From NCBI GenBank assembly GCA_965202665.1, contig OZ241841.1, positions 2,688,001 to 2,752,000 of the forward strand: 64,000 bases of DNA. Reading direction: 5' to 3'. The position numbers and the translations under genes were made by a program. Below the pieces are notes generated by a model that searched no databases, was not told where the DNA came from, and worked only from the letters and a program-made list of their open reading frames with translations. This document shows, one piece after another, positions 12,124 through 54,829 of the stretch (position 1 is its first letter; each line of letters begins with the position of its first letter). This stretch comes from Candidatus Spongiisociaceae bacterium. Its GTDB lineage: Bacteria > Actinomycetota > Acidimicrobiia > Spongiisociales > Spongiisociaceae.

Positions 12124-12683
12124 AGCAGTCCTCCCAAAATGGATATTAGCAAGGTAATTAGGGCGCTGACGGAAACACATGTGGAAGCGCGGGCGAAAAG
12201 GAGCGCTTTCCATTCATTGAGACAGAACCTCTGCTGATTAACCGAGTTATCGATGGCCACAAGCAGTTGTTGTAGGTTCCCGGAGTCTTTATCGACGCAT
12301 TCAGCCAGAGCGGTGGACGAGGTGATGAGATTGGGCCGCCAAGCCAAGTAGGCCAAGATCACGCCGGTGACTGCGATAAAGCCCGTTATTCCTATCATCC
12401 AACCGGGAATCAACCCGCGCGTCGACGCCAACAGGGCGATGTAAACCCCTCCGGCGGTGATCACCGCCAGCAATTTGCGGTCCAGCGCATTGGACGCTTC
12501 CAGCAAGTGGCGCTTTTCCAGTTGCGCCCTGTCCAAGAGTTGGCGTACCGTGTCCGGGTCGGCGTCCGGATGAAGGATCGTTGCGGGCGGCGGGATGTCC
12601 TGCGGCGGGCGCAAGGAACCCCGGAGGCGGCGGAGCCCGCGGCGAACGGCGAGCAGGAGATGGTATGTCACATAAAACAACAT
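12120..12683 (-). CDS. 3-TM membrane protein, Pycsar-effector (PycTM/DUF5706)-like topology
   Basis: ALDRK-TM1-TM2-WRP-loop-NEWK-TM3 layout; lower GC than its flanks. Confidence 0.6.
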   Translation of the reverse strand: MLFYVTYHLLLAVRRGLRRLRGSLRPPQDIPPPATILHPDADPDTVRQLLDRAQLEKRHLLEASNALDRKLLAVITAGGVYIALLASTRGLIPGWMIGITGFIAVTGVILAYLAWRPNLITSSTALAECVDKDSGNLQQLLVAIDNSVNQQRFCLNEWKALLFARASTCVSVSALITLLISILGGLL

Positions 12684-23832: not shown

Positions 23833-24615
23833 TTACCGGTTTCCGAACATGTTGGTCAAGCCTCCGATGAGGGAACCTTCCCCGTCCGAACCGCCCGGTT
23901 GCAGATTCTGCAACACCCGGTCGGCGATCCGGTTGAAGGGGAGCGACTGCAACCACACCCGTCCCGCCCCGCTGAGAGTGGCAACGAACAACCCTTCGCC
24001 GCCGAACACCATGGTTCGCAAGTTGCCCGCCCGCTCGATGGAGTATTCGATCTGCGGTTCGAAGGCCACCAGGCAACCTGTGTCCAAACGCAGGGTTTCC
24101 CCCTGCAGATGACGTTCGATGATGGTTCCGCCGGCGTGTAGGAAAGCCATCCCGTCCCCTTGGACGGTCTGCAGTATGAACCCTTCGCCGCCGAACAGCC
24201 CGGTTCCCAGTTTGCGGTTGAAAGTAATGTCCAGTTTGGTGCCCATGGCGGCGCACAGGAAAGCCTCTTTTTGGGCGATTATCCGCCCGCCCAACTGTCC
24301 CAAGTCGAGGGGGACGATTTTGCCCGGATAGGGGGCGGCGAAGGCCGCTTTGCGCAGGGAGCCGCCTCCGTTGGTGAAGTGGGTGAGGAACAGCGACTCA
24401 CCGGAAATGGCCCTCTTGCCCGCCGATTTGATTTTGCCCCAAGCGCCCTGTTTGGGTTCGGAGCCGTCCCCCAAGCGGGTTTCGAACGTGATGTCGGGTT
24501 CCAGGTACATCATGCCGCCCGCTTCGGCGACCACGGTCTCGCCGGGGTCCAAAGCGACTTCCACGAACTGCATGTCGTCGCCGTAAATCTGATAGTCAAG
24601 TTCGTGGCTGCGCAT
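23833..24615 (-). CDS. TIGR00266/AIM24 family protein
   Basis: GDDMQ.VE..LDP.E...AEAG and two FGGEG motifs; start at MRSHE inferred. Confidence 0.9.
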
Positions 24616-24751
24616 TTCATCCGCCTTTCTCCATTCCGGCCGATACGTTGCGGCCGCCATCGGGCAACACTACCACCATTTCGGCCTTCGCCGACCCAAC
24701 CGGCCTTGAACCGGCGCCGTTCGCCGACTGCGAAACTGCGACGAAGGGGGG

Positions 24752-25756
24752 CTACCGGGAGGCCAGTCGGCTGTCTCCGCCGACCATGAAAGAGGCCAGT
24801 TCGGCGCGGGTGGCCCCGTTCGGGTAAGCCCTGCTGACCACCGCCGTAATTTGCCGGGCGGTGATAGCTTGCACGGGACGGAAAGTTCCATCCGGATAGC
24901 CGGTGAACCATCCTCTGCGCACCGCCGCCGTCGCGTCGGGATTGTCGGTGTCGGGCGGGGGGGAGCAGGTGCCGAGCATGCTCCGCAAGGCGCCCCGCTC
25001 CGTTCGGTCGGCGGTCAGCGACCATTTCGTTTTGATCGCTATCCACTCTTGGGCGTACCGACAGTGCGCCGCCCCGGGGCCCGGTCTCCACTCCGCAGGA
25101 TCGGAAGCGGATTTGCGAATGTTCTCCGAGCCGGGCATTACGTACAAGTTGTCGGTGTCTACATAAAACCGCCGCCGCTCCGCTTGCCCCCAGTTGTTTC
25201 CGCCGGAGTCGTGGGCTTCTTTAACCGCCACCAAATGATCGCGGTGAACATTCCCGGAGCAGTCAGGGTTGCTGGCCGAATAGTAGGCCCATTTGCAACT
25301 GCCGGTGCGCCACCGCAGGGCTTGGTTGACGGAAGACGGCCAGCGCACGCTCCACAAGTCCCGGTCGTAACCGCCGACGGCTTCGGGACGTTCCACCAGC
25401 GGCCCGTTGGCCGCCACCCGCCCATCGCCCCCCACCATAAAGGAAGCCATCTCCACCCGGGTGGAACCAGCGGGGAAAGCCCGGCTTACCACCGTCCCGA
25501 GCTGCCCGGCGGTGATGCGCTGGTCCGGTCGGAAAGTGCCATCCGGGTAACCCTGGAACCATCCTTCTCGCACCGCCTGCAAGATGTCCGCACGGCGGGG
25601 GTGAGAAGCGGGCACGTCCGAGAAATCTGTTTGTCCTTCGGCGGGCGCAACCACCAACCCGGCCGTCGCCAGCAAAACAACCAGAACGACCGACAAACCG
25701 GCCATCCGGCGGTCCGCAAGATCCCGACCCGGCCTCACCCGGGCATCTTCCGACAT
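24752..25756 (-). CDS. Secreted SLH-anchored HNH (DUF1524-like) nuclease
   Basis: Signal peptide; SLH repeat (FSDV...GYPDGTFRP) on each side of a DH.V...A..SG..W......F..D..NL......N..K....P..W.P...C.Y...W...K..W.L core. Confidence 0.8.
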   Translation of the reverse strand: MSEDARVRPGRDLADRRMAGLSVVLVVLLATAGLVVAPAEGQTDFSDVPASHPRRADILQAVREGWFQGYPDGTFRPDQRITAGQLGTVVSRAFPAGSTRVEMASFMVGGDGRVAANGPLVERPEAVGGYDRDLWSVRWPSSVNQALRWRTGSCKWAYYSASNPDCSGNVHRDHLVAVKEAHDSGGNNWGQAERRRFYVDTDNLYVMPGSENIRKSASDPAEWRPGPGAAHCRYAQEWIAIKTKWSLTADRTERGALRSMLGTCSPPPDTDNPDATAAVRRGWFTGYPDGTFRPVQAITARQITAVVSRAYPNGATRAELASFMVGGDSRLASR

Positions 25757-25868
25757 AAACCCAGAATACCCCCGCAGGTTCGCAGAACGGCGGATTTACA
25801 GGTTTTTTCCGAGCCGGCCTATCAGGCAGATGGGCATATTGCTAGATTGGTCCCGAAAGGAAGGTGAC

Positions 25869-26504
25869 ATGAAACGGAAGTACCTGACAGACGAAGAACG
25901 GTACGGCCTGACTACAGGACAGGTTGACAGGCTTCTCTACCGAGCCAAACGAGACAGGTGCGATATTTGCCAACGAAAGTGGGCAGAGGTTGCGCACGCA
26001 GCGCGGAAGCGGCCTCAAAACATTGACCACTGCCATGACTGCGATGGCGTGAGGGGGGTGCTGTGCTTCCGATGCAACTACTACGTGGTAGGCGTTCTAG
26101 AAAAAGGCCGATACGTGAGGACCAGGCATTACCGGCGGGCGAAGGACTACATTCTAAAGGGCGGAGCGGAGCATTTGGAAAAAACGGCCGGCCTTTGGGG
26201 GCGGCTGTTGAAGTCCCACAAGATGAGATGCGACTGTCCGAGAGATGTTTTGGAAAAGCGCCTGCGCAGGAAGAAGAAAGCCGGGCAAGCGACGCACTCC
26301 GACCGACTGGACGACCTGGACGGGTTCGCCGCGGACGAAGGGTGCCAACGTTTAGACGACCTGCTAACGGAGCGACTGGGCGGGAAGGCAGGTAGGGACG
26401 ATCCCGAGTCGCGGCAGCGGGCAATCCGCTCTGGGTTCGGCCATATTAAGATGTGCAAGTGGTGTCTCCCAAAGTGGCGCGCCCAGTCGGCTGGCAACCG
26501 GTAG
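25869..26504 (+). CDS. Recombination endonuclease VII-like protein with C-terminal HxxxCxxC zinc finger
   Basis: YGLT...CDIC...IDHCH...VRGVLCFRCN is the Endo VII motif; C-terminal C...HIKMCKWC; ATG after GGAAGG. Confidence 0.8.
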   Translation: MKRKYLTDEERYGLTTGQVDRLLYRAKRDRCDICQRKWAEVAHAARKRPQNIDHCHDCDGVRGVLCFRCNYYVVGVLEKGRYVRTRHYRRAKDYILKGGAEHLEKTAGLWGRLLKSHKMRCDCPRDVLEKRLRRKKKAGQATHSDRLDDLDGFAADEGCQRLDDLLTERLGGKAGRDDPESRQRAIRSGFGHIKMCKWCLPKWRAQSAGNR

Positions 26505-26579
26505 GTCCGGGCAGCGACGCGGAGGTGGCGGCAATCCAGCCCGAATCCGGTTCCCGGACTTGACCCGGCTTTCCCAAGA

Positions 26580-26607
26580 ATGTCCGATAATGCCCGTTAT
26601 GTATAGT
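26580..26607 (+). other. dif: dif-like XerC/XerD chromosome dimer resolution site
   Basis: ATGTCCGATAA-TGCCCG-TTATGTATAGT has the 11-6-11 layout with ATAA-N6-TTATGT core; intergenic; gene strand bias flips here. Confidence 0.85.
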
Positions 26608-26947
26608 TAAACCCGGAAGGGCATTACGGGCTGGCAACCGGCTTAAAGTCTTGTCCAACAAGGGTTTTAGCAATCTGCCAGATCACCCACCTCCGCCCTC
26701 CGTCAGTGATTGCTGGAGAAACATGGCCCGCCTACCCTCGTCGCCCACTCTGCAACCCGCGTGGCCGTCCCTGCTCCGGGGCTATCCACGTAGCCTGCTC
26801 CGTAACGATCCTCGCCCGCATCCAGGATCGAGAACCCGCAATCGGCGCTTGTGCCACTTCAGTCGCACCTACCGCGTCCCACACCTGGACTGCTAACAGT
26901 CCCCAACCGAAAAGCCGGTTGAAATTTCAAAATTTCCCATCTTTGGT

Positions 26948-26976
26948 TTGACTTTGTGTAGTGTTTCTGCAACAAT
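26948..26976 (+). promoter_or_regulatory. Putative leaderless promoter of rloAB
   Basis: TTGACT, 17 nt, (TGc)AACAAT, 6 nt, ATG 26983; perfect palindrome TTGAAATTTCAA at 26919-26930. Confidence 0.5.
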
Positions 26977-26982
26977 CATGAC

Positions 26983-28299
26983 ATGAGCGAACCAGAAAAG
27001 CCCCTAGAAGGTGCTAGTGCACTGCTGTCCTTCACGACGGAGAACGCCCACTCCTACCGCGACGAGACAGAATTCTCCATGCTGGCCACGCGCTTCGCTG
27101 ATGATGACATACGGCGCGACCTGTCCCTAGCAGGATTGAAAGATCCAGTGGGCGTGCTGCCCCTCGCGGGCATTTTCGGGCCCAACGCATCTGGCAAAAC
27201 TACTATTCTGCGTGCGATGGCTGAAATGAGAATAGCGGTAAGAAACTCTTTTAGAAAAGGCGATGACGACAGTGGGTTTAGGCGTATTCCCTTTCTTCTC
27301 GACTCCCAGCACAGTCAAAAACCCTCTGTATACGGGGTTGATATCGTAATTGAAGGTGTTAGTTGGCAATATGGATTTATAGTAGATAACGAACGAGTTA
27401 TTGAAGAATACGCTTACTATTATCCTAAAGGCCGTAGATCTCTATTATTTGATCGCAATAAAAATGCTGTCAAATTTGGTCCCGCCCTTCGTCCTGTTAG
27501 TAGCTCGTTACAAGATATATCGCGACCTAACTCACTGTTATTATCAGCGGCAGGTGCCACTAGTAACAAAATATTGGCTCCACTATATAAATGGTTTCGC
27601 AGTAACTTGATATATATGGATTCGAATAGTAGAGATTTTCGTCTTCATGAATTATCGAATAAAATTCGAAATAATAATTCCAAGGAAAGGATAATGGATT
27701 TGATAAGAGAATCTGATTTAGGTATTACTGATATACAGCAGATAGAACCAGATCAGGTTATGTTAGAACAAGCAAAACAGATGATTAGTATTATATCAGG
27801 TGAAGATTCAGAAATAGATATTGATGATCTTAAGTTACTGGGTAGAGTTCAATTTATTCATCGCGGTTCAAACGCAAATGTAGAATTGGATTCATCATTG
27901 GAATCCTTAGGAACTGTAACTTGGGCAAGCTTGATCCAGCCTATTATAAATGCTTTAGACAATGGACAAACTTTACTCATAGACGAAATTGATTCGAGCC
28001 TTCATCCGCTTCTTGTAGAATCTCTTATAAATTTATTTCAGAGTAAGGTTTCTAATCCCAATTGCGCCCAGATTATATTCAATTCCCATGATAGCAGTAT
28101 TTTGAGTAATAGACAGTATGCTCTCACTAGGGATCAAGTTTGGTTTACATCTAAAAAACAGGAAGGTTCTACTATTCTTTATCCCCTGTATGATTATAAA
28201 CCGAGAAGTGGTGAAGCCATTGACAAACGGTATCTTCATGGACGATACGGTGCTATCCCTAACCTAGGAATACACTTCAATCCTCAAGAAGGAAAATGA
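26983..28299 (+). CDS. RloA-like ABC/AAA_21 ATPase (abortive infection, AbiL-type)
   Basis: IFGPNASGKT Walker A, ES.GT signature, LLIDEIDSSLHP, QIIF.SH, RDQVWF and YL.GRYGA.P C-terminus; AT-rich. Confidence 0.9.
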   Translation: MSEPEKPLEGASALLSFTTENAHSYRDETEFSMLATRFADDDIRRDLSLAGLKDPVGVLPLAGIFGPNASGKTTILRAMAEMRIAVRNSFRKGDDDSGFRRIPFLLDSQHSQKPSVYGVDIVIEGVSWQYGFIVDNERVIEEYAYYYPKGRRSLLFDRNKNAVKFGPALRPVSSSLQDISRPNSLLLSAAGATSNKILAPLYKWFRSNLIYMDSNSRDFRLHELSNKIRNNNSKERIMDLIRESDLGITDIQQIEPDQVMLEQAKQMISIISGEDSEIDIDDLKLLGRVQFIHRGSNANVELDSSLESLGTVTWASLIQPIINALDNGQTLLIDEIDSSLHPLLVESLINLFQSKVSNPNCAQIIFNSHDSSILSNRQYALTRDQVWFTSKKQEGSTILYPLYDYKPRSGEAIDKRYLHGRYGAIPNLGIHFNPQEGK

Positions 28300-28928
28300 A
28301 AAAGTATAACCGCTCTCGTAAACTAAATCGTTCTCGTAGAGGCGTTGAACAACGGGCCACCGTAGCAGTGTTTACGGAGGGCAAAATAACAGAACCTCAG
28401 TATGTCAAGGTTCTAAAAGATATCTACAGAGGAGCCGTCAACATTGATGTTATAAACAGATACGTTGGTTCTGCTCCTGATGTTCTTGTAAAGAAAGCTA
28501 TTGACTATCAGAGGAATGTAGACAGACATAATCCACAATACGATGAGATATGGTGCCTGTTTGATAGAAACGAACACCTAAACATCGAGGTAGCAATGCA
28601 AAACGCTCGTAAAAATAATATAAAGACGGCAATCACTAATCCATGTTTTGAATTGTGGTTGGTACTTCATCAAGAGAATCAATCTCGACATGTGAGCAAA
28701 GAGAGTATCCAGAAAAGGTCTCGGTCTTTGGGCATAACAGAAGGTAAGCATCTCTCGGAAACTGGTAAGAAATTATCGCGTGAAAAATACTATGATGCCA
28801 AAAATCGGGCGCAACGTCTTGAGAAGCAACACATAGGCAATGGTTCCAAGTCTTGGGAGAATCCTAGTAGTCAGGTGTGGAAGTTCGTTGACCGGTTAGC
28901 GTTGTTCTCGGAAGTAGGGGATGGCTAG
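28296..28928 (+). CDS. RloB family (TOPRIM-like) protein
   Basis: VFTEG..TE..Y, WCLFD, NPCFELWL.LH and NP.S motifs; ATGA coupling to the ATPase gene. Confidence 0.9.
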   Translation: MKKYNRSRKLNRSRRGVEQRATVAVFTEGKITEPQYVKVLKDIYRGAVNIDVINRYVGSAPDVLVKKAIDYQRNVDRHNPQYDEIWCLFDRNEHLNIEVAMQNARKNNIKTAITNPCFELWLVLHQENQSRHVSKESIQKRSRSLGITEGKHLSETGKKLSREKYYDAKNRAQRLEKQHIGNGSKSWENPSSQVWKFVDRLALFSEVGDG

Positions 28929-29849
28929 GTTGGCGGGGGCGCCCAGGTAACGGGCGCGTTTGCCGCTGGCTAGAACTATCATCGCCGCTATGGCCAACGC
29001 GAAGGGCAACATGGCCAGGATGGTGGATGGCACGTTGCTCCACGGCTCCCCCAGGGTCTGCAGGGTGAACTGAATGTATTCGGCGGCTCCGAACAGGTAG
29101 GCGGCGAAAATGGCGCGCCACGGCCGCCAGCTGGCCAGGATTACCAGGGCGATGGCGATCCATCCCGCCCCGCCGATGGGGTCGTCTTGCCAGGTGGGAA
29201 CCAAAGCCAGCGAGAAATAGGCCCCGCCCAGGCCGGCCAGCGCCCCGCCCGCCATCACATGCGCGTAGCGCACCCAGGTCACGTTGATGCCCACCGACTC
29301 GGAACTGGCCGGGTCCTCCCCCACCGCCCGCAACGACAATCCCATCCGGGTGCGGAACAGGTAATAACTGGCGCCTCCGGCGGCCGCCCACGCCAAATAG
29401 ACCAGCAGGTCGTGTCCGAACAGCAACGGGCCGATCACCGGCAGGTCGGCCAGCCCCCCTTCCAAAACGGCGGTGAACGCCTCCCGGGAGGGGCTGCCCA
29501 CCAGCGGCTCGGAGCCCGCCCGCCCCAGGAAACTGGCCAGACCCGACCCGAAAATGGTGAGGGCCAGGCCGGAGACGATCTGATTGACCCGCAGGGTGAT
29601 GGAAGCGAAAGCGTGGATGGAGGAAAAGGCCGCCCCGGCCGCCATGGCGGTCACCACCCCCAGGGCGAGGCTGCCGGTGTTGAAAGTGGCCCAAAACCCG
29701 GAAACGGCCCCCACCAGCATCATCCCCTGCACGCCCAGGTTGAGAATCCCGGCCCGTTCGGTGATGATCTCGCCCACGATGGCGAAGATAAGCGGCGTCC
29801 CCAAAGTAACGGCGGCGGCGATGGTGAGAACCAGTTGCGAATCGTTCAT
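28896..29849 (-). CDS. Nucleoside/purine ABC transporter permease
   Basis: GE...ER.G.LNLG..G.M, R.VGE.P, G.GWIA.A motifs. Confidence 0.92.
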   Translation of the reverse strand: MNDSQLVLTIAAAVTLGTPLIFAIVGEIITERAGILNLGVQGMMLVGAVSGFWATFNTGSLALGVVTAMAAGAAFSSIHAFASITLRVNQIVSGLALTIFGSGLASFLGRAGSEPLVGSPSREAFTAVLEGGLADLPVIGPLLFGHDLLVYLAWAAAGGASYYLFRTRMGLSLRAVGEDPASSESVGINVTWVRYAHVMAGGALAGLGGAYFSLALVPTWQDDPIGGAGWIAIALVILASWRPWRAIFAAYLFGAAEYIQFTLQTLGEPWSNVPSTILAMLPFALAIAAMIVLASGKRARYLGAPANLAIPYFREQR

Positions 29850-34679: not shown

Positions 34680-35033
34680 ATGACGAAAATCACCGTTTCC
34701 GAATTGGAGCAAGATGTTGCCTCCTACGTGCGCCGGGCCATAGCGGATGGCGAAACATTCGAGATAACTGAGGACGGACTACCATCGGCCATCCTGAGCC
34801 CCGCCAATAGGTTTACTTCCCACGACCCAATCCGAGCCGACGGGGATTTTGAACCAGATGATGGCGCTAATGCATCGGCGGGTCTTTCCCCGCTAGATCG
34901 CCTCCGCGCCGCCGGTGAGGTGGAAAAACCGGTAGGTGATATTCGCGATGTGCCTGAACCCTTGAAACCAGTACCAGGTCAACCACTCCTGTCAGAGATG
35001 ATCATATGGATGCGAGATAATGAACGCTACTAA
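34680..35033 (+). CDS. Phd/YefM-type (VapB) antitoxin
   Basis: I.V.EL......Y.R....GE...IT..G.P.A.L.P N-terminus and LS.....MR..ER C-terminus; overlaps the PIN toxin start. Confidence 0.82.
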   Translation: MTKITVSELEQDVASYVRRAIADGETFEITEDGLPSAILSPANRFTSHDPIRADGDFEPDDGANASAGLSPLDRLRAAGEVEKPVGDIRDVPEPLKPVPGQPLLSEMIIWMRDNERY

Positions 35034-35142: not shown

Positions 35143-36218
35143 TGTACATGGCCAGTAGGTTGGTTACAGTCTGGAGGTTGGTGGTTTGCCTCCGAGGCTG
35201 TAGTGGGGCCGGTGGTTATTGTAGTAGTGGAGCCAGTGGCGGAGGGCTTGGTTTCGGGTTTGGTTGTCGGGCCAGGGTTGGGAGTTGGCCCATTCTCGTT
35301 TGAGGGTTTGGTTGTATCGTTCCACTTTGCCGTTCTGCTGGGGATGATACGGTCTGATCGTGATATGACGGATGTCGTGTTGGGAGAGCAGGGAAGCGAA
35401 CGCTCGGCTGCGGGTGTAGCTCCAGTGGTTGTCGGTCATGATCTCCGCGATGTGGGTTACGCCTAGTTGGCGGAAGTGGTGGAGTGCGCGGGCGGTGAAC
35501 GCGGCGACGGTGGTTCCTTTCTCGTCTGATAGCGTTTCGGAGTAGGCGAGGCGGGTGTAGTCGTCCACGACAGAGTGCACAAAGGTCCATCCCGCTCCGC
35601 TGGCGGGGGCGTTGCCCCGGCCGTGTACCTTCCATCCCCCGCCGGGCGGTATGGAAGAAAGCTTCTTAACATCCATATGCAGCAACTCACCAGGCCGTTC
35701 CCGTTCATACCGCACCACCGGCCCGGGAGGGGTTTTGAGCGGTTCGCCGGTCAGCGGGTCGCATTCCCACAGACGCAACACTCCATGGCGGCGGAGGATG
35801 CGGCTGATCGTCCGCTCCGGCACCCCCGTAAACGCCGACAATCGAGCGGGCCCCGCCCGCAACATCCGCCGCGCCCGCAGCACCAGCTCTTCCACCTCCG
35901 GGCTGGTACGCATAGGGGAGCAACGCGGCCGCGACGACCGGTCTTCCAAACCGGCCTCGCCTTCTTCCCGGTAGCGGCGCACCCACTTGGACACGCACTG
36001 CCGAGACATCCCCATCCCCCGAGCCACTTGCGCTACCGGTTCCCCTTCTTCTATTACCCGCAACACCATCCCCAAACGTCCCAAAGGCGACGACCTCGCG
36101 TTACCATGCATCCCTGAAGACCTCCTCCCGTGCTATAGGGTGCTTTCACTCCCCATAACACCAGGAGGTCTTCACTTATGCAACAACCAAACCGTCACCA
36201 ACGTCCTGGCCAAGTACA
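35143..36218 (-). mobile_element. Complete IS481-family insertion sequence (1076 bp)
   Basis: Ends TGT...ACA; imperfect IRs TGTACATGGCCAGTAGGTTGGTTACAG / TGTACTTGGCCAGGACGTTGGTGACGG (22 of 27); 6-bp duplication TCTAGT at 35137-35142 and 36219-36224. Confidence 0.95.
35164..36111 (-). CDS. IS481 transposase
   Basis: H.NA....GR, KWV.RY..EG..GL.DRSSRP HTH, and DDE core (H.DVKKL, TDN, NGKVER). Confidence 0.96.
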   Translation of the reverse strand: MHGNARSSPLGRLGMVLRVIEEGEPVAQVARGMGMSRQCVSKWVRRYREEGEAGLEDRSSRPRCSPMRTSPEVEELVLRARRMLRAGPARLSAFTGVPERTISRILRRHGVLRLWECDPLTGEPLKTPPGPVVRYERERPGELLHMDVKKLSSIPPGGGWKVHGRGNAPASGAGWTFVHSVVDDYTRLAYSETLSDEKGTTVAAFTARALHHFRQLGVTHIAEIMTDNHWSYTRSRAFASLLSQHDIRHITIRPYHPQQNGKVERYNQTLKREWANSQPWPDNQTRNQALRHWLHYYNNHRPHYSLGGKPPTSRL

Positions 36219-38577: not shown

Positions 38578-38586
38578 TGATATGAT
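38578..38586 (+). promoter_or_regulatory. Extended -10 promoter, probably leaderless, for the giant surface protein
   Basis: TGa-TATGAT ends 7 nt before ATG 38594. Confidence 0.5.
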
Positions 38587-38593
38587 GCCCCCT

Positions 38594-41500
38594 ATGCTCC
38601 TCACCTGGAGGAAAATCATAAAACGTTGCCTGGTAGTCATGCTGACGGTGAGTCTGATGGGGATCGCGGCGGCGGTTCCGGCGGGAGCGGAGTCCGGTGA
38701 TACGGTCATTTCTTTGAGTTTCACCGACGCCGCGTTGTCGGTGGTCGCCGAAGTTTCCGAAGACGGGGGGCCCCGGACGGTGCGGGTGGCGGCATCGGTG
38801 GCATCGGCCCCTGATTCGGATGTGACGGTGACGGTGACGGTGGGAGATTCGGGAGGGACCGCCGTCGCCGGGAGTTGCGCGGGCGTCGGGGCTTCGCAGA
38901 CGTGCTCCGGCGATTACCGGGCCGGTGTCTCGTCGGCGACGGTTACTATCGGAGCGGGGGCGACCAGCGGTTTCTCCGATGCCTTCGTCATCACCCCCCA
39001 CCGCGACGAGATTACCGAAGACGACGAAACGATCCGATTCGCCGGTACCGTCGCCGTCTCCGGGTACAAAGTGAACTCGGCCGACCTGCGGATCGCCGAC
39101 GCCGACCGGGGCATCATTCTTACTTTGTCCAATCCTGTTATGACCGAGCGGGGAGACAGGGCGGGCGGAACGGCGGAGAATGTTTGCGACTGCCGACCGG
39201 CGGGGGCGCATCGGACGAAGTTGACGGCTGCCGTGAGCGGGGCCTCCTCCACCTACGGCTCCGATCTGCGGATGCTGGTGGCTTTCCAGGACGGAACCGC
39301 TACCCGGGGTTCCGGCGGTGATTGGCACACTGAGCACGGAGGAGACGCTCCGCAGGCCTACGTAACTATTCCGGCCGGCTCCGTTTCCGCGGACGCGGAC
39401 CGTACCTTGGAATTTTTTTCCTGGGTGGACGATACGGCGGAACTGGATGAAACCTTCTCGGTCACGGTTACCGCGTCCGATGGGAGTCCGTTGCCGGGGT
39501 TCACGGTGTCCCCGGTTGAGATGACCATTGTGGATGACGATGCGCCGGTAACCCTGACCTTGAGTCGAACCTCGGTGGCGGAAGGACATGCCGGTTCTTT
39601 GACGATTACCGCCGAAATGCCCGGCGCCTCGCGTTCGGCTATCGGTTCCGCTTTGAGCCTTGCGATTACGGCGCAGGCCGCTACGGGGGATTTCGGGGCT
39701 GATGCAGGCGATTATTCGTATTCGGATACTACCGTCGTCATTCCCGCCCGCTCCACCGCCTCCTCCGCCGTCCCTTTGGGTTTGAGGATTATTGATGACA
39801 CGGTGGTTGATGCGGGGAGCGGGTCGGGGAATGTGGAGCGGTTGTCCATCGGAGCGCTCCAGCCGGCGGGGCTGACTTCCGCTATCCAACCGGCCGCTTT
39901 GGAAATTACCGACAACGATGCGCGGGTGGCGCTGACCGCCGATGCGGTTCCGGAGGGCGGGAGCGGTTCCGATGTGAACGTGTCGGCTTCTTTCCTCGAT
40001 ACGGTCACCGCCTCGCATCTAACCGCCGACACGGTAGTTACGTTGGATGTGAAGGCCGCAACCCCGGCGGGGACCGGTCTGGTTGGGGCAACCGAATTTT
40101 CTTACTCCCCGACTGCGGCCAATACGGTGACCATTCCCGCCGGGGCGGTCGCCTCTTCCCTACCGGGGAAGTTGACCGGGCTGACCATAAACCAGGACGC
40201 CGTCGTGGAAGGGCCGGAAACGTTGCTGCTAGAGGGCGCCTCCCGATTCGAAAAAGCGACGGCGGAAGTGACGGTGCAAGACGACGATTCCGCCATTACC
40301 CTGTCGGCGGCGCCGGGGTCGGTGGTGGAAGGCGCATCCCCCCGGGAGGTAACCGTCACCGCCCGATTCGCCGGTTCCTCCTCCCTGCTTAAAACGTCCA
40401 CCAACGTGGAGGCGACGATTACCGGCAGCAATGGAGCCGTTCGGGGCGCGGGGGGAGATTTCACCACCGATCAAGAAAACGGCTCTTTTACCATCACCAT
40501 CCCAGCAGAGCAGACTAGCGGGACCCAGACCATCCGGCTCACCGCACGCGACGACGGCGACTTCTCGGAAGGAGACGAGAAGGCGGCGGTGTCGGGGTCG
40601 GCTTTGGTGGGCGGGGCGGCGGCGGCGGTGACCGGAACGGAAATAACCATCCAAGACCCGATTCCGGTTACGCTCAGTTTCACCGACGGCTCCCCCTCCC
40701 CCGCCGCCATTACCTCCCTACGCGAGGAGGGCGGAACGCAAACGGTGCGGGTAAAAGCCGCCGTAGATGCCGCCCCCGCCGCCGACTTGACGGTAAACAT
40801 AACCACAGGAGGCGGTTCCGCGCTTCCCGGGGCAGACAACGACTACGTCTCCTCAGCGAACTCGGCGCAGGTGATCATCAAAGCGGGCGAAACCAGCGGA
40901 CTATCCCCCGCCCTCACCATCACCGTCGCCGACGACACCGCAACCGAAGGCGGCGAAACCATCCGCTTCACCGGAACCGTCGCCGAAGCCGGGTACGGAG
41001 TGCGCGGAGCCGACCTGACCATAACCGACAACGACGACAATATCGTCCTGTCAGTCAGCCCGGACACGATAGTGGAACGCTCCACGGCCAACCTGATAAC
41101 AGTCACCGCTACCTTTGCCGGAGCCGCCTCCTCCGCCCTAGCCGCCGACACCGAAGTAACGGTAAGCGTGGCGGGCGCCGCCGGAGCGGAGGGGGCCGTT
41201 GCAGGACCCGGCGCTGACTTCACAACCGACCAGACAGGAGCTTTTACGGTCGTCATCCCGGCGGCGCAGATTAGCGGGACCCAGACCTTCCGGCTCACCG
41301 CCCGCGACGACCACGACGACGCAGAGGGAGACGAGAAGGCGGCGGTGTCGGGGTCGGCTTTGGTGGGCGGGGCGGCGGCGGCGGTGACCGGGACGGAGAT
41401 AACCATCCAAGATCCGATTCCGGTTGTGCTCAGTTTCACCGACGGCGCCCTCTCCCCCGCCGCCATTACCTCCCTACGCGAGGAGGGCGGGGCGCAAACG

Positions 41501-44500
41501 GTGCGGGTAAAAGCCGGAGTGGATGCCGCCCCCGCCGCCGACCTGACGGTGAACGTAACCGCGGGCGCTACAGGGGGTTCCGCCCTCCCCGGGGTCGGCA
41601 ACGATTATGTTTCCTCCGCCAGCTCGGCGCAGGTGATCATCAAAGCGGGCGAAACCAGCGGATTATCCCCCTCCCTAACCATCACCGTCGCCGACGACGC
41701 CGTAGCCGAAGGCGACGAATCCATACGCTTCACCGCAACCGCCTCTGCGGCCGGTGATCGAATATCTTCGGCCTACCTGACCATAGAAGACGACGATGAC
41801 GATATTGTCCTGTCGGTCAACCCGGATACGGTAGTGGAACGCCCCTCGGCCAATCTGATATCGGTTACCGCCTCCTTCGCCACAGCCGCCTCCTCCGCCC
41901 TGACCGCCGACACCGACGTGACGGTGAGCGTGGCGGGCGGTTCCGGCGCTGACGGGGCCGCCATGGGAGCGAGCGGCGATTTCACCACCGATATAGACGG
42001 CGGCGCCTTCACGGTCACCATCCCGGGCGGACAGTTGAGCGGAACCGGGCTCTTCCGACTAACCGCCCCCCCGGACGACGACTCCGAAGGCGCCGAGAAG
42101 GCGGGCGTCTCCGGAGCGGCCGCCGTGGGCGGACGGGCGGTTGCGGTAACCGGCGACGAGGTGAGCATCGTTGATACCGGAGTCAAGCTGTCGGTGACCG
42201 ACCCGTCCGACGGGTCGGCGGTAACAGCGGTGAACGAAGCGGCGGTGGCGGCTCGCACCGTTCGAGTGACCGCCGTTTTGCCATCGGGGACAACCGCGGG
42301 CGCAGGCGGAGTAACGGTTCCCTTTGATCTAGCGAGCGGCTCCGCCGTTTTGGACTCCGACGGATCCACCTTCGGAACAGGGGAAGATTTCCAAGTCATC
42401 TACCCAGGATCGGACCCGGTGGAAGACGACGGGTTCGCCTCCGGGATTGCCATCCCCTCCGGGAATTCATCCCATTACATGGACATAACGCTGGCGGTAA
42501 ATGACGATGCGGTCGCCGAAGGAAGCGAAACCATTCTGCTAAGAGGAGGGGAAGTGACCCTTTCCGATACCGCATACGCGGTGGTGGGCAGCCAGCTGGA
42601 AATCATCGACAACGACGCGTCCCCGACGGTGATCAACCTCACCTTGCTTTCCGCCTCCGACGCCGACCTAGCGGGAGTGGCGGAAGACAGCGGAACAACC
42701 AAAGTGCGGGTGCGCGCCTCTTTCGCCGGAGGCAAGTCGTTGCCCTGGGAGGTGACGGTTCCCATACAGGTAGGAGTAGAAGGCCGCGGCGGATTCTCCG
42801 CCGGATACAACCCTTGCAATCCGCCCCAGAATTTAATAGAGGTGAGCTTAGGCGGAAGCGGAACCCTGGCCATAACGGGCGACACCGCCTCCTCCGGAAG
42901 CGATTACACCGCGGTTACCGGGCTGTCGGTGACAATCCCAGCCTTCTCAACATCTGGGATCGCCGAGTTTGATTTGGCGGTGACGGACGATTCGCAACGC
43001 GAAGGGACAGAATCATTAACGGTGGACGGCGATCCCGAAGGGACGCTGAACCGGTTCACGGTCAACGACGACGCCTTGCTGATTTACGATGACGAGCAAC
43101 CCCTTTCCGCAGTTGACATCACGTTGCTGGATTCCGCTGATCGTCCCATATCGCAAGTGAGCGAGGGAAGCGCCGCTAGCGTGACCGTTCAACTTTCCTA
43201 CCCGGGAGAGGTGACTTTGGACGAGGAACGCACCGTCTGGGTAGTGGTGGAGGAAGTGACCGCCAAGTACCGGGTGGATTACGACATATATTGCGTGATT
43301 AAGCGGGCACTCACCATCCCCGCCAATCAACAACGAGTGGAAGACTCCTTCGGTTTGATAACCAGCGGCGTCCCCTACGATGACAACGTGGTGGAGGGGG
43401 ACGAAACTTTGCGGGTAACGGGGGAGCTGGCCGGATACGGCTTCACGCCGAGGATTTTGACCATCAAAGACGACGATGTGCGGCCCTCCCGGATTGAGCT
43501 GAATGTTTCCCCGGCGACCGTTGCCGAGAACGTAGGGGAAGAGGCGCAGTCGATGACGGTTACCGCCAAGTTCCCGGACAACTCCGCGGTCCTTACCTCC
43601 GACACCGTGGTGACGATCACGATAGGCGGCGACGCCCGCTCCGGGGAGGACTATAAGGACTTGTCGGTGGAAAGCCCCTTCTCCATTACCATCCCCGCCG
43701 GATCGCGGCAGGGGCAACAGAAGATGACGGTGGCGATCGTAGACGACGTCGTCTACGAAGAAGACAATAAACAGATAGCTTTCACCGGCTCCGCTAGCGG
43801 GTTCACAGTCGAGGGAGCGTCGCTGACCATAACAGACGACGACCCCGCCCCTCCCAACGCACCGGACTACCCGCCGGGTACTAATCCGCCGGACGACCCC
43901 CCAGGCACCAATCCGCCGGACGACCCTGAGCCGCCGGAAACCAACCCCCCGGACGAACCGCCGGGCGCTAATCCGCCGGACGACCCCCCAGACAGCAATC
44001 CCCCGGACGACCCTGAGCCGCCGGAAACCAACCCCCCGGACGAACCGCCGGGCGCTAATCCGCCGGACGACCCCCCAGACAGCAATCCCCCGGACGACCC
44101 TGAGCCGCCGGAAACCAGCCCGCCGGTTGCCCCCGAGGAGCCAACCGTTAACAACCCGCCGCCGCCCGCCCCCCAGCCGCCCCGCCCCCCGCCCCCCGTC
44201 GTAGTTAACGACGGCGTCCCCGCTCCGCCGGCCCCGGCTCCTTTAATCCCGTCGCAACCGCCGTCGGAGCAGTCAGCCTGCCAGGGCCGGTTCTGCGACG
44301 AGGACGACAGCATCCACGCCGCGAACATCGAGCAGATCGCCGAATGGCGGATCACGCTGGGCTGCGACGCCGGCGATCCGACCATGTTTTGCCCTTCGGG
44401 CCTGATCACCCGCCGCCAGATGGCCGCCTTCCTTTACCGGGCCGCCTCATTACGGCCAAGCGCTCCGGCTTCGCAGGAAGTGACTATTACGGACGTGCCC

Positions 44501-44857
44501 GCCGACGCCTGGTACCGCCCCTTCGCCGACTGGGCGGTGTCGGTGGGATCGTTCACAGCCCCGCGCGGGGTGTTCGACCCGAACGGGGTGGTCACCAGGG
44601 CCGATATGGCGGTAATGATGACCGCCGCCTTCCCCCACATTGCGGAAAAAGAAGAACCGGACGGCCTGTTCGCTGATACGGACCACTTGGATCCGGCGAC
44701 GGTGCGCGCCATCGAAGGAATGTACGAGGCGGGGGTTACCAGAGGATGCGCCGCCGCCCCGCTTAGCTACTGCCCCGACCAGCCGGTCACCCGCGCGCAG
44801 ATGGCCTCCTTCTTCGTGCGCGCCATAAACCTCGCCCCGGCCGAGGCCGAACTCTAG
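38594..44857 (+). CDS. Giant secreted surface protein (~2087 aa): Calx-beta/Ig-like repeats, Pro-rich stalk, C-terminal SLH domains
   Basis: Signal peptide (…AVPAGA); repeated V.E…DY/DF…TIPAG…DD…EG.E…I.DDD units; C-terminal ITRRQMAAFL, VTRADMA and VTRAQMASF SLH motifs. Confidence 0.88.
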   Translation: MLLTWRKIIKRCLVVMLTVSLMGIAAAVPAGAESGDTVISLSFTDAALSVVAEVSEDGGPRTVRVAASVASAPDSDVTVTVTVGDSGGTAVAGSCAGVGASQTCSGDYRAGVSSATVTIGAGATSGFSDAFVITPHRDEITEDDETIRFAGTVAVSGYKVNSADLRIADADRGIILTLSNPVMTERGDRAGGTAENVCDCRPAGAHRTKLTAAVSGASSTYGSDLRMLVAFQDGTATRGSGGDWHTEHGGDAPQAYVTIPAGSVSADADRTLEFFSWVDDTAELDETFSVTVTASDGSPLPGFTVSPVEMTIVDDDAPVTLTLSRTSVAEGHAGSLTITAEMPGASRSAIGSALSLAITAQAATGDFGADAGDYSYSDTTVVIPARSTASSAVPLGLRIIDDTVVDAGSGSGNVERLSIGALQPAGLTSAIQPAALEITDNDARVALTADAVPEGGSGSDVNVSASFLDTVTASHLTADTVVTLDVKAATPAGTGLVGATEFSYSPTAANTVTIPAGAVASSLPGKLTGLTINQDAVVEGPETLLLEGASRFEKATAEVTVQDDDSAITLSAAPGSVVEGASPREVTVTARFAGSSSLLKTSTNVEATITGSNGAVRGAGGDFTTDQENGSFTITIPAEQTSGTQTIRLTARDDGDFSEGDEKAAVSGSALVGGAAAAVTGTEITIQDPIPVTLSFTDGSPSPAAITSLREEGGTQTVRVKAAVDAAPAADLTVNITTGGGSALPGADNDYVSSANSAQVIIKAGETSGLSPALTITVADDTATEGGETIRFTGTVAEAGYGVRGADLTITDNDDNIVLSVSPDTIVERSTANLITVTATFAGAASSALAADTEVTVSVAGAAGAEGAVAGPGADFTTDQTGAFTVVIPAAQISGTQTFRLTARDDHDDAEGDEKAAVSGSALVGGAAAAVTGTEITIQDPIPVVLSFTDGALSPAAITSLREEGGAQTVRVKAGVDAAPAADLTVNVTAGATGGSALPGVGNDYVSSASSAQVIIKAGETSGLSPSLTITVADDAVAEGDESIRFTATASAAGDRISSAYLTIEDDDDDIVLSVNPDTVVERPSANLISVTASFATAASSALTADTDVTVSVAGGSGADGAAMGASGDFTTDIDGGAFTVTIPGGQLSGTGLFRLTAPPDDDSEGAEKAGVSGAAAVGGRAVAVTGDEVSIVDTGVKLSVTDPSDGSAVTAVNEAAVAARTVRVTAVLPSGTTAGAGGVTVPFDLASGSAVLDSDGSTFGTGEDFQVIYPGSDPVEDDGFASGIAIPSGNSSHYMDITLAVNDDAVAEGSETILLRGGEVTLSDTAYAVVGSQLEIIDNDASPTVINLTLLSASDADLAGVAEDSGTTKVRVRASFAGGKSLPWEVTVPIQVGVEGRGGFSAGYNPCNPPQNLIEVSLGGSGTLAITGDTASSGSDYTAVTGLSVTIPAFSTSGIAEFDLAVTDDSQREGTESLTVDGDPEGTLNRFTVNDDALLIYDDEQPLSAVDITLLDSADRPISQVSEGSAASVTVQLSYPGEVTLDEERTVWVVVEEVTAKYRVDYDIYCVIKRALTIPANQQRVEDSFGLITSGVPYDDNVVEGDETLRVTGELAGYGFTPRILTIKDDDVRPSRIELNVSPATVAENVGEEAQSMTVTAKFPDNSAVLTSDTVVTITIGGDARSGEDYKDLSVESPFSITIPAGSRQGQQKMTVAIVDDVVYEEDNKQIAFTGSASGFTVEGASLTITDDDPAPPNAPDYPPGTNPPDDPPGTNPPDDPEPPETNPPDEPPGANPPDDPPDSNPPDDPEPPETNPPDEPPGANPPDDPPDSNPPDDPEPPETSPPVAPEEPTVNNPPPPAPQPPRPPPPVVVNDGVPAPPAPAPLIPSQPPSEQSACQGRFCDEDDSIHAANIEQIAEWRITLGCDAGDPTMFCPSGLITRRQMAAFLYRAASLRPSAPASQEVTITDVPADAWYRPFADWAVSVGSFTAPRGVFDPNGVVTRADMAVMMTAAFPHIAEKEEPDGLFADTDHLDPATVRAIEGMYEAGVTRGCAAAPLSYCPDQPVTRAQMASFFVRAINLAPAEAEL
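40516..41740 (+). repeat. Internal tandem duplication (offset ~756 bp) in the surface protein gene
   Basis: GGAGACGAGAAGGCGGCGGTGTCGGGGTCGGCTTTGGTGGGCGGGGCGGCGGCGGCGGTGACCGG and flanking sequence recur almost exactly at about 40570 and 41328. Confidence 0.9.
43850..44120 (+). repeat. Pro/Asp-rich tandem repeat with an 87-bp unit
   Basis: GACCCTGAGCCGCCGGAAACC at 43922, 44009 and 44096; encodes (DPEPPETNPPDEPPGANPPDDPPDSNPPD)x2+. Confidence 0.92.
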
Positions 44858-52840: not shown

Positions 52841-52880
52841 TTTTCTCCTTTGCGGCTCGGGACGGCCCTATCTTACCCCG

Positions 52881-53029
52881 GTTCCTGTTTTGCCGTTCTG
52901 CTAGGGATGATACGGTTTAATTTTGATATGGCGGATGTCGTGTTTGGAGAACAGGGAAGCGAACGCTCGGCTACGGGCGTATCTCCGGTGGCTGTCGGTC
53001 ATGATCTCCATAATGTGTGGGTGATGCCT
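52881..53029 (-). pseudogene. Degenerate IS481 transposase fragment
   Basis: Diverged copy of about 35319-35465 (TTTGCCGTTCTGCT.GGGATGATACGGT…CAGGGAAGCGAACGCTCGGCT…GTCGGTCATGATCTCC). Confidence 0.85.
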
Positions 53030-53629
53030 GCTGGCAACACTTCAAACGATGCGTCCAACGTCACCGCCTGCAAATCCCGGGCCTCGTCCGGGGCGCCGGA
53101 GCCGTCCACCGGAACCCGCCAACCAGTCAGCCCGGCCAAACTGTCAATCATCGTTTCCGTCCCTTCTGACGAAGACCGACCATTATCCTGTTACCCGCCA
53201 AACCCGGCGATGCCATCAAAAACGGGGTATGCGATAGTTGATAAGTATGAATAACCAGCCAACGCTCACCGTCCACCAGCAGGTCGTGAAGTTCCTTGAC
53301 CAGGTGCAACGGAACAGCAACCCAGCTCCTCCGCCGCCTCCGACACCGTCCGTCCCCGGCCTACCTACTGCGTCGCCCACCTAGCCGCCCGAGAAGTCAA
53401 CCGGGTCCGCATTGGGGCTATCCGCGGGTCCTGCTCCGTAAACGACCCCACCCCGCATCCTGCATCAGGATAACGCCACCGGCGTTTGGGCCCGCATCCC
53501 CAACCCCAAGTGAACGGACCATTCGTAGTCGGACGCTCTATACTCACTATCGTCTAACCGACTGGGAGTTCATTCCTCGCATTACGATAAGATTGTCGCC
53601 GGTGAATACGGTGCGGTTTCTGACATTAA

Positions 53630-53932
53630 TCATTTTCGCTTCCTCGCTATACATCTTTCTAGTTGCCATAGCCCATAGAGTAAAGAGGAAATTACAGTGG
53701 TAAACCACACTCGTATTGGAATGGCTAATAGCACAGTATCCACCGGAAAGAGTAAACTGCTTAATAGGGCCATTCCCCCAACGATGATACTAGGAGCATA
53801 CCAAACCTTTGAAAACACAGAGGCGATAATCCCCGGAAGGGTCACATCTGGTGCAGGCAAAGTCAATGTTATATTCCTGGTATGGGTAGGAATTCGTGCC
53901 GTCCCGAATATATCTCGCCTTCTACTAGGCAT
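53630..53932 (-). CDS. Small AT-rich 2-TM hypothetical protein
   Basis: TAATG overlap with the upstream ORF; two hydrophobic helices and a basic C-terminus. Confidence 0.55.
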   Translation of the reverse strand: MPSRRRDIFGTARIPTHTRNITLTLPAPDVTLPGIIASVFSKVWYAPSIIVGGMALLSSLLFPVDTVLLAIPIRVWFTTVISSLLYGLWQLERCIARKRK

Positions 53933-54174
53933 TACTTGCCTACTAACAAATCTTGGAGATTAACCCAATTCACAGCACCTTTATCTGAAAAAGTAAGTAT
54001 CTGGGAAGACTTGCCACCCACAGGACATACTGTCAACTGTACCGGTTCCGGTATATCGCTCTGCATGATCAAAGTCAACAGTCCCTGTGGAGTACTGCTG
54101 TAATCCACGTTAATTTCAAAGTCATAGGATTTCTCTAGTGAAATCCTAACATTGTGAGTATCTGTAGCAATCAT
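53932..54174 (-). CDS. Small AT-rich hypothetical protein (80 aa)
   Basis: SD AAAGGA upstream; downstream of a strong promoter. Confidence 0.55.
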   Translation of the reverse strand: MIATDTHNVRISLEKSYDFEINVDYSSTPQGLLTLIMQSDIPEPVQLTVCPVGGKSSQILTFSDKGAVNWVNLQDLLVGK

Positions 54175-54367
54175 TTATCTCTGTCCTTTCATAGTAGTGG
54201 CTGTCCGGGGTAGACTCACTAAAGGCTAAGTAAAACCCCGTCCCGCCCGCCTAGCCGTTCAACCACCAGTCCGATCCGTCCTCTCATCGTTCCTTTCCCT
54301 TCTGCTCTGCGTGTGTTGCGTTCACCGCCGGTCGGCCGCTTTCTACTGCTCCTTTCTGCTATGCGCC

Positions 54368-54395
54368 ATTATACCATTTGTGATAACGACGTCAA
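54368..54395 (-). promoter_or_regulatory. Near-consensus sigma70 promoter
   Basis: On the minus strand: TTGACG, 16 nt, (TGg)TATAAT. Confidence 0.65.
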
Positions 54396-54554
54396 ATCTG
54401 ACCCGCTGGTTTGCGGTTACGTCTGCCCTACCTACTATACTAGGTTGTTGGAAATAGCACCTGTAAAGGTGAGAACCTGCGATAGTCCACTATCCGTATA
54501 GGGGAAGTGTCGGACAAGTAACCGGAGCAGGACCTGGCCGGATAGGCGTTTAGT

Positions 54555-54829
54555 GGCCTTCGGATTTTAGGGGGGAGTGAGGTTGGGGAGTAGGTTCGGG
54601 TTGGGTTTTCCTGCGTAGAGGAGGATGCGGGTTCGGTAGTTGCGGAAGTTGCGGAATCCGAAGGCTACGCGTTTGACGCGTTTGATGGGGTTGTTGGCTG
54701 ATTCGGTGGGTCCGTTGCTCACTTGGGCGTGATGCCAGGCCACGATCTGGAAATGCCAGGCGGCCAGGGTGCGTCCTAGTTGGTTGATTTCCATAGCAAC
54801 CCCTAACTCCCCCCTCAAACGGAAGAGCT
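54555..54829 (-). mobile_element. Internally deleted ISL3-family element (~275 bp)
   Basis: C-terminal ISL3 transposase remnant (SNGPTES.N..IKRVKR.AFGFRNF.NYR.R.LL) between similar inverted ends GGCCTTCGGATTTTAGGGGGGAGT / AGCTCTTCCGTTTGAGGGGGGAGT. Confidence 0.8.

Follow-up and report, generated by a model that had tools for sequence, protein, structure and literature searches.

The locus reported here compares most closely with chromosomal dif sites and with the mobile DNA described beside them. Chromosomal dif, where the recombinases XerC and XerD act, has an 11-6-11 format, is present in single copy at the shift in guanine-cytosine (GC) skew, and is accompanied by two Xer recombinases and FtsK. 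Such sites were previously predicted in 66 of 66 Actinobacteria, with Acidimicrobium absent from the main text of that study (PMC3025954). Integrative mobile elements exploiting Xer (IMEX), among them the gonococcal genetic island and LME-1, combine conjugation genes with a canonical dif, a same-core copy with a divergent XerD arm and, as far as these accounts go, no recombinase (PMC5357621, PMC9765430); in the gonococcal island the divergent arm is reported to block FtsK-activated excision. Plasmid-borne (pdif) and chromosomal dif modules of Acinetobacter contain dif-like sites, inverted pairs around small modules, and toxin-antitoxin (TA)-type genes (PMC12907356, PMC10132070). Insertion sequences (IS) of the IS1202 family (ISAba32 group), about 1.5 kb long, insert beside the XerC arm at chromosomal dif sites (PMC10132070; 10.1101/2022.12.17.520857), and AbiL is an abortive-infection gene pair with a TOPRIM effector (PMC10440598). 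We analyzed a window of 64,000 nucleotides (positions 2688001-2752000) from the genome of a Candidatus Spongiisociaceae bacterium of the Acidimicrobiia (G000, one contig of 2,768,541 bases), in which a dif-type site is flanked by nuclease genes and by an AbiL-type pair, rloAB. An earlier note, made from the sequence alone, had described this arrangement as a terminus dif embedded in a defence micro-island and had proposed a Xer-driven hotspot for acquiring defence genes. Positions below are those of the window unless a genome is named.

The dif site and the replication terminus

The dif-type site was present as the note had given it, at 26580-26607 on the forward strand, reading ATGTCCGATAA-TGCCCG-TTATGTATAGT. 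The XerC arm (26580-26590), core (26591-26596) and XerD arm (26597-26607) were named by resemblance to the C-spacer-D table of PMC10132070, and the 28-mer has the 11-6-11 layout, an inner palindrome and an XerD-type arm. Scanning the whole 2.77-Mb genome with a weight matrix of 30 relatives' sites (including that of G000 itself and one from G039) gave 39.3 bits for the 28-mer versus 17.5 for the runner-up, and a broader matrix gave 40.6 and 14.3 bits, indicating a single copy per chromosome and no better candidate elsewhere. Of 29 family genomes, 24 contained the dif pattern (18 of the 19 of good quality), with a single copy in 18 of the 24, while a reversed-pattern control gave no match. A looser pattern matched 203 of 272 genomes of the order, a count that includes G039 and some chance matches.

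Placement at the replication terminus, another claim of the note, was supported. Cumulative GC skew reached its maximum at 2,717,155, only 2.6 kb from dif at 2,714,580, and its minimum at 1,346,453 beside dnaA (1,347,179), giving replichores of 1.367 and 1.401 Mb. The polar motif GGGNAGGG (893 leading, 604 lagging) switched polarity 2.8 kb from dif and TGGGGGAG did so 5.8 kb away, with two further polar motifs flipping at 7 kb and about 58 kb. A skew shift, a site opposite oriC and a convergence of polar motifs were thus all observed. Gene orientation also changed across the site as described, with 20 plus and 8 minus genes to the left and 8 plus and 19 minus to the right by our own open reading frame (ORF) caller. 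Only two tyrosine recombinases are encoded in G000; their best models are XerD (34 kb from dif) and XerC, above the NF001399 cut-off, and an FtsK gene lies at 149,738.

Given its terminus position, its uniqueness, its conservation in the family, and a genome that also encodes FtsK and XerC/D-like proteins, the 28-mer is almost certainly the chromosomal dif, and a host XerC/XerD pair very likely resolves chromosome dimers there. We found no essential difference from described chromosomal dif/XerCD systems. Position 7 of the XerC arm is G, which is also the base in the extra dif-like sites of G019, G023 and G008 and differs from most primary sites of the family, a resemblance that would suit a palindrome arisen by chance, or a mobile pdif, with the true dif at another place. 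This explanation has a negligible chance of being right given that the site outscores all others in the genome by 22 bits, sits at the skew maximum opposite dnaA, and adjoins the AIM24 gene as in genus g4, and that the dif of G001, a genome of the same genus, carries the same G.

A second family of ATAA-N6-TTAT 28-mers, with eight near-copies, was considered as pdif and rejected, because its copies fall within genes for paralogous secreted proteins of about 1250 aa. Some ten of these paralogues occur in G000 (at 1461263, 1580229, 1584302, 1588320, 2094771, 2271730 and other positions), some in tandem; their N-terminal part is highly conserved, and the dif-like palindrome appears to have arisen there by chance. 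In G008 and G015 the orientation of dif relative to AIM24 is opposite to that in G000, G001, G002 and genus g4. Joint Genome Institute (JGI) metagenomes gave no match to the genus-specific dif pattern and 120 loci for a broader pattern, and none of the 80 loci listed encoded relatives of six tested window proteins; 16 loci in viral contigs matched the broad pattern. Named occurrences of the window DNA were sponge and marine metagenomes, and no RNA dataset was among the occurrences listed. The proteins most closely related to the G000 XerD carry the labels Ca. Spongiisociaceae or Acidimicrobiia, which bears out the actinobacterial host assumed in the note.

Cargo on the two sides of dif

Compared with G001 (core 81-83% identical), synteny stopped at 24678 and resumed at 26933. 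The conserved left anchor is a minus-strand AIM24-family gene (23833-24660, PF01987), and its end is separated from dif by 84-115 bases in both G004 and G009 and by 1964 bases in G000, where the gap holds two genes. The first (24752-25756, minus strand) encodes an SLH-HNH-SLH protein with a GmrSD_C-like HNH domain (PF00395, E=6e-14; PF07510, E=7e-4, below the cut-off), likely a secreted nuclease anchored to the cell wall. It had no counterpart at the orthologous place in G001, G004, G009 or G013, and its nuclease domain is 45% identical to an ORF in a G001 element described below and 48% identical to another G000 locus. SLH-domain matches were also observed at about a dozen other G000 loci. 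The note had omitted this gene and set the left edge of the island at 25790; since non-conserved DNA begins near 24680, the SLH-HNH gene is part of the insertion on the XerC side and the edge has to be moved.

The second gene (25830-26504, plus strand, with a possible start at 25869) encodes a 224-aa Endonuclease VII (EndoVII)-domain protein (PF02945, E=2.7e-12, residues 23-93), and its stop at 26504, 75 bases before dif, matches the 76 bp described earlier. The DHxH and CxxCN columns were invariant in all seven aligned rows. The C-terminal half belongs to no known family and matched two unnamed proteins without Pfam families, and an AlphaFold2 model of the protein had a mean predicted local distance difference test (pLDDT) score of 41. 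An Atlas search with the protein returned Endonuclease_7 clusters only, and no relative was found in the viral contigs searched. EndoVII homologues occurred in 2 of the 29 family genomes, the others forming an orthologous pair that is distant from dif and whose C-terminus differs. This paralogue (G000:846389-847216; G001:2869615-2870400) has a hydrophobic, probably membrane-spanning C-terminus, and in G000 it adjoins a methylase-HNH fusion gene. With GC contents of 0.655 and 0.58, both near that of the host, the SLH-HNH and EndoVII genes are not AT-rich.

The XerD side differs in both composition and distribution. A dispersed intergenic repeat (26727-26874, 71-75% identical to eight other G000 places) precedes rloA (26983-28299, plus strand), which encodes a 438-aa AbiLi-type AAA_21 ATPase (PF13304, E=1.6e-34; PADLOC AbiLi, E=1.6e-83), and rloB (28296-28928, plus strand), which encodes a 210-aa AbiLii-type TOPRIM-like protein (PF13707, E=1.1e-33; PADLOC AbiLii, E=6.7e-22). 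The right anchor is a minus-strand ABC-transporter permease gene (28896-29849, PF02653), 93% identical in G001. The AT-rich pair and its borders were as the note had them: rloA starts 375 bases right of dif, rloA and rloB have GC contents of 0.405 and 0.42 versus 0.64 genome-wide, and GC is back to 0.63 at 28901, close to the 28895 given for the return to host composition.

The adjacent AAA_21 ATPase and RloB genes form the gene pair that defines AbiL/RloAB, and like AbiL of Lactococcus the window pair is an overlapping two-gene operon whose best PADLOC matches are AbiLi and AbiLii and in which E28-G29 and D90 are conserved (PMC10440598). Unlike the reference systems, it is chromosomal, lies outside a type I restriction-modification operon, has N92 for the second aspartate, and is known here from sequence. 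The acidic motif of TOPRIM domains has the form E...DxD; in our alignment RloB keeps E28 and D90 and has N92 where all five homologues have D (DxN versus DxD), a change that may weaken the nuclease. By homology, rloAB would act as an AbiL-type abortive-infection pair of an ATPase and a TOPRIM nuclease.

RloA and RloB are 65% and 54% identical to orthologously placed copies in G001, with the same ABC operon after both, and rloAB is a genus-level locus adjoining that operon. In G001 the pair is 5.2 kb from dif, with fic, an SLH-like gene and cobUTS in between. Since G004 also has cobUTS to the right of dif and none was found in G000, G000 has likely lost about 4.9 kb (fic, the SLH-like gene and cobUTS), and this loss would account for rloA standing 375 bases from dif. 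RloA relatives were found at 14 loci in 12 of the 29 family genomes, and the copies within 5.3 kb of dif (G000, G001, G004, G009) formed one clade (support 98/99). In G004 and G009 rloA is on the opposite side of dif, beyond AIM24, and no rloB was found beside it at these dif loci. A quick PyrG tree did not pair genera g1 and g4 as sisters, so this clade may reflect transfer as readily as vertical inheritance.

Taken together, the dif flanks are quite probably a patchwork built up in two or more separate acquisitions. Only that on the XerC side is possibly a worn-down Xer integrant, and the SLH-nuclease and EndoVII genes appear to be an insertion separate from rloAB. The close flanking of dif by a nuclease gene and an AbiL-type pair had suggested a single Xer-integrated defence island at 25790-28930. 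That reading is now very improbable: a single integration event would have left dif at one boundary of the cargo and a partner site at the opposite boundary, rather than placing dif centrally, and matrix scans found no second full or half dif/att site bounding the cargo (24680-28930) on either side. The two halves also differ in GC (0.58 versus 0.41) and in distribution, the four dif-proximal RloA proteins form a single clade, and the rloAB orthologs of G001, 5.2 kb from its dif, already contradict the single-island reading. The pair of direct dif sites expected of an IMEX was thus not observed here; the cargo also has no recombinase of its own, which is uninformative alone. Partner-site candidates at 12369 and 28888 scored 0.8 and 1.8 bits and were rejected. 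The window's own content is ordinary, dif being expected in actinobacteria and AbiL-type pairs being known.

Elsewhere in the window, an IS481-type transposase (35164-36111) splits a PIN-like ORF that follows the gene for a Phd antitoxin (34680-35033), IS-like fragments occur near 52850-54800, and a predicted secreted protein of 2091 aa (38582-44857) is missing from the syntenic G001 region.

Elements and variation at dif in relatives

In G001, the interval between AIM24 and dif is filled by 65.8 kb of DNA (G001:C1:1486549-1552407) lying between two direct dif copies (1486549 and 1552380) that share the same core, the distal copy having an altered XerD arm. The element encodes a TrwC relaxase-primase, a VirB4-like ATPase, a coupling protein (T4CP), ArdC, a single-stranded DNA-binding protein (SSB) and tad genes, as well as a ribonucleotide reductase, a thymidylate synthase (thyA) and a 2237-aa helicase-domain protein. 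It is also strongly G-skewed (0.19). No tyrosine recombinase or resolvase was found in it by six-frame PF00589 and PF00239 searches, and no recombinase or transposase family was found by Pfam in its 50 called ORFs; the only two tyrosine recombinases of G001 are both outside it. In its conjugation genes, its canonical dif with a same-core copy of divergent XerD arm, and its lack of a recombinase it resembles the gonococcal island and LME-1 (PMC5357621, PMC9765430). Unlike these, it occurs in an actinomycete sponge symbiont, has a TrwC relaxase-primase and tad genes, and has a sister genome, that of the window, without a second site. We consider it likely to be an actinobacterial conjugative element that hijacks the host Xer machinery.

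Sites resembling pdif were found in further family genomes in a survey that included G039, a genome on which no conclusion here depends by itself. G019 had 14 dif-like matches and G023 had 5, including inverted pairs around gene modules of 1-3 kb, and two sets of these sites lie a short way downstream of genes for TrwC relaxases that share about 49% identity with that of G001. A 2.8-kb block with two dif-like sites is duplicated at 98.7% in G019/G023. In G014, one dif-like site (C2:85082) lies among TA-type genes on a 183-kb contig with a VirB4-like gene, and this contig is likely a plasmid with pdif. The sites of G019, G023 and G014 are like the Acinetobacter modules (PMC12907356, PMC10132070) in their inverted pairs around small modules and TA-type genes; unlike the modules described there, G019 and G023 also have direct pairs and, on the XerD side, some 170 bases that are conserved, and no such module was present in the window. 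A same dif-like site follows the same 240-aa gene at G008:354528, G008:760604 and G015:3133335, the XerD-side DNA differing between the two G008 copies.

The dif flanks of relatives were variable rather than invariant. Among 104 ORFs located up to 5 kb from dif in 14 family genomes, 22 had a G000 match (45% identity, 50% cover); at 20 control loci of 10 kb, picked by hand, 110 of 181 ORFs had one (p=0.015 per locus). Defence or TA Pfam families (Fic, RES, PIN, GmrSD, TIR, Abi_C, AAA_21, AAA_14/DUF4143, Schlafen, methylase) were observed in 9 of 14 dif flanks versus 3 of 14 controls (Fisher p=0.054), the scan covering 72 of the 104 flank ORFs (recognizable housekeeping and previously scanned ORFs left out) and 128 of the 181 control ORFs, drawn from 14 of the 20 loci. 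Counting a PemK ORF from a later scan would bring in G016 as well. Different genera share cassettes next to dif; their order varies, and their identity is 80-89% compared with 77-82% for pyrG. Variable, defence-leaning flanks are therefore moderately supported. Strong half-site remnants (at least 19 bits) were observed no more than 1.1 kb from dif in four of the 22 flanks, while 200 kb of control DNA had none above 16.3 bits. In these four flanks, a damaged direct-repeat dif site lies 418 bases left of dif in G002, an inverted XerC arm stands just past an Abi_C gene in G023, and G001 and G013 have duplicated XerD arms near dif.

Strain variation at the locus was compared in 8 of 21 listed runs (X3, X4, X5, X9, X12, X15, X16, X17), and extra DNA abutting the XerC arm was found in two of the eight assemblies. 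On a 27-kb contig of X17, 161 bases (26417-26577) are swapped for 1521 others and the match resumes at 26578; in X12 the match ends at 26506, and a different contig takes it up again at 26579. The strain-variable segment (26417-26578) thus abuts the arm, with homology returning 1-2 bases outside it and the left breakpoints differing. Contigs of X16 matched both flanks at about 97% and then became unlike the window inside rloA and rloB; their loose ends look by eye like in-frame homologues, which points to a divergent rloAB allele in the same slot. Transposons of the IS1202 family (ISAba32 group) that target Xer sites could have made the XerC-side strain insertions, as the length of the X17 insert is close to that of the roughly 1.5-kb IS and both lie on the XerC side of dif. 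We regard this as unlikely: the described IS sit 5-6 bases from the arm with a 5-base target duplication, compared with the 1-2-base offset and the loss of G000 flank DNA seen here, and the hosts named in PMC10132070 and the main text of the preprint (10.1101/2022.12.17.520857) are mainly Proteobacteria. The choice between Xer and IS is testable directly from public data with the X12 and X17 inserts.

Routes of gene acquisition at dif

We suggest that an incoming circle with a dif mimic, having a damaged XerD arm, would recombine at dif and land on the XerC side, and that later deletion of the distal site would stop excision and fix the remnant. From the geometry of the G001 and gonococcal elements, cargo would therefore lie on the XerC side of a working dif; by this analogy the extra DNA of G000, X12 and X17 appears to be on the predicted side, and rloAB does not. 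Arrival of the SLH-nuclease/EndoVII segment in the way the G001 element likely arrived has about an even chance, and rloAB may instead turn over by homologous allele exchange.

Several observations weigh against Xer as the general route. Both G000 tyrosine recombinases fall below the XerC/XerD TIGR equivalog cut-offs, and no second site bounds the window cargo. The defence enrichment is not significant (p=0.13 when Tubulin_2 is added to the control tally, giving 9 versus 4) and the genomes are related. An AT-rich islet beside dif is unremarkable in G000, which has 60 such islets and where 7.3% of all positions are no more than 500 bases from an islet. Fifteen predicted insertion junctions in family dif flanks yielded one clear remnant and one borderline, so most cassettes lack a Xer footprint. 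Four of the eight runs (X3, X4, X5, X9) show the G000 arrangement without a joint at dif, X15 is fragmentary, and the X12 and X17 inserts may share one origin.

These points leave a real, if somewhat less than even, chance that Xer took no part in the window cargo, and that homologous or illegitimate recombination acted at an insertion-tolerant terminus where breakpoints pile up since dif cannot be lost. The absence of att remnants in G000 and at 13 of the 15 junctions fits this explanation, as do the spread of AT-rich islets over a genome in which dif is the sole strong site and the EndoVII and HNH paralogues elsewhere in G000. Against it, the G001 element fills the same AIM24-dif interval with its att sites intact, the X12 and X17 breakpoints are at most 2 bases from the XerC arm, and G002 retains its damaged direct-repeat site. 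The Xer-driven defence hotspot proposed in the earlier note therefore holds in part: relatives' flanks are variable and defence-leaning, and Xer-driven acquisition at dif in this lineage is supported by the sister genome G001, with hints in G002 and G023, while Xer delivery of the window's own cargo is unproven.

The note's remark that such acquisition is poorly described in actinobacteria agreed with our literature search. We found no actinobacterial IMEX or dif module in publications on dif, Xer, IMEX or pdif, and so no described Xer-hijacking dif element in Actinomycetota, with the limit that the supplements of PMC3025954 and of the IS1202 preprint may list such hosts; nothing on dif-integrated elements was found in the available text of PMC5587801 and PMC10121019.

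The exact dif sequence is now defined for an uncultured family of sponge symbionts. The G001 element provides Actinomycetota with a specific candidate for a conjugative island that hijacks Xer, and the pdif-like modules of the family are candidates for that phylum as well, the known examples we encountered being proteobacterial. Tentatively, and at close to an even chance, we propose that Ca. Spongiisociaceae may have a Xer-based economy of gene capture, in which gonococcal-type islands enter at dif, pdif-like modules travel on conjugative elements and plasmids, and loss of the distal att site fixes defence and TA cassettes, the SLH-nuclease/EndoVII segment being one such locked remnant. With only two tyrosine recombinases each in G000 and G001, this suggests how members of the family may stock defence genes without integrases of their own.

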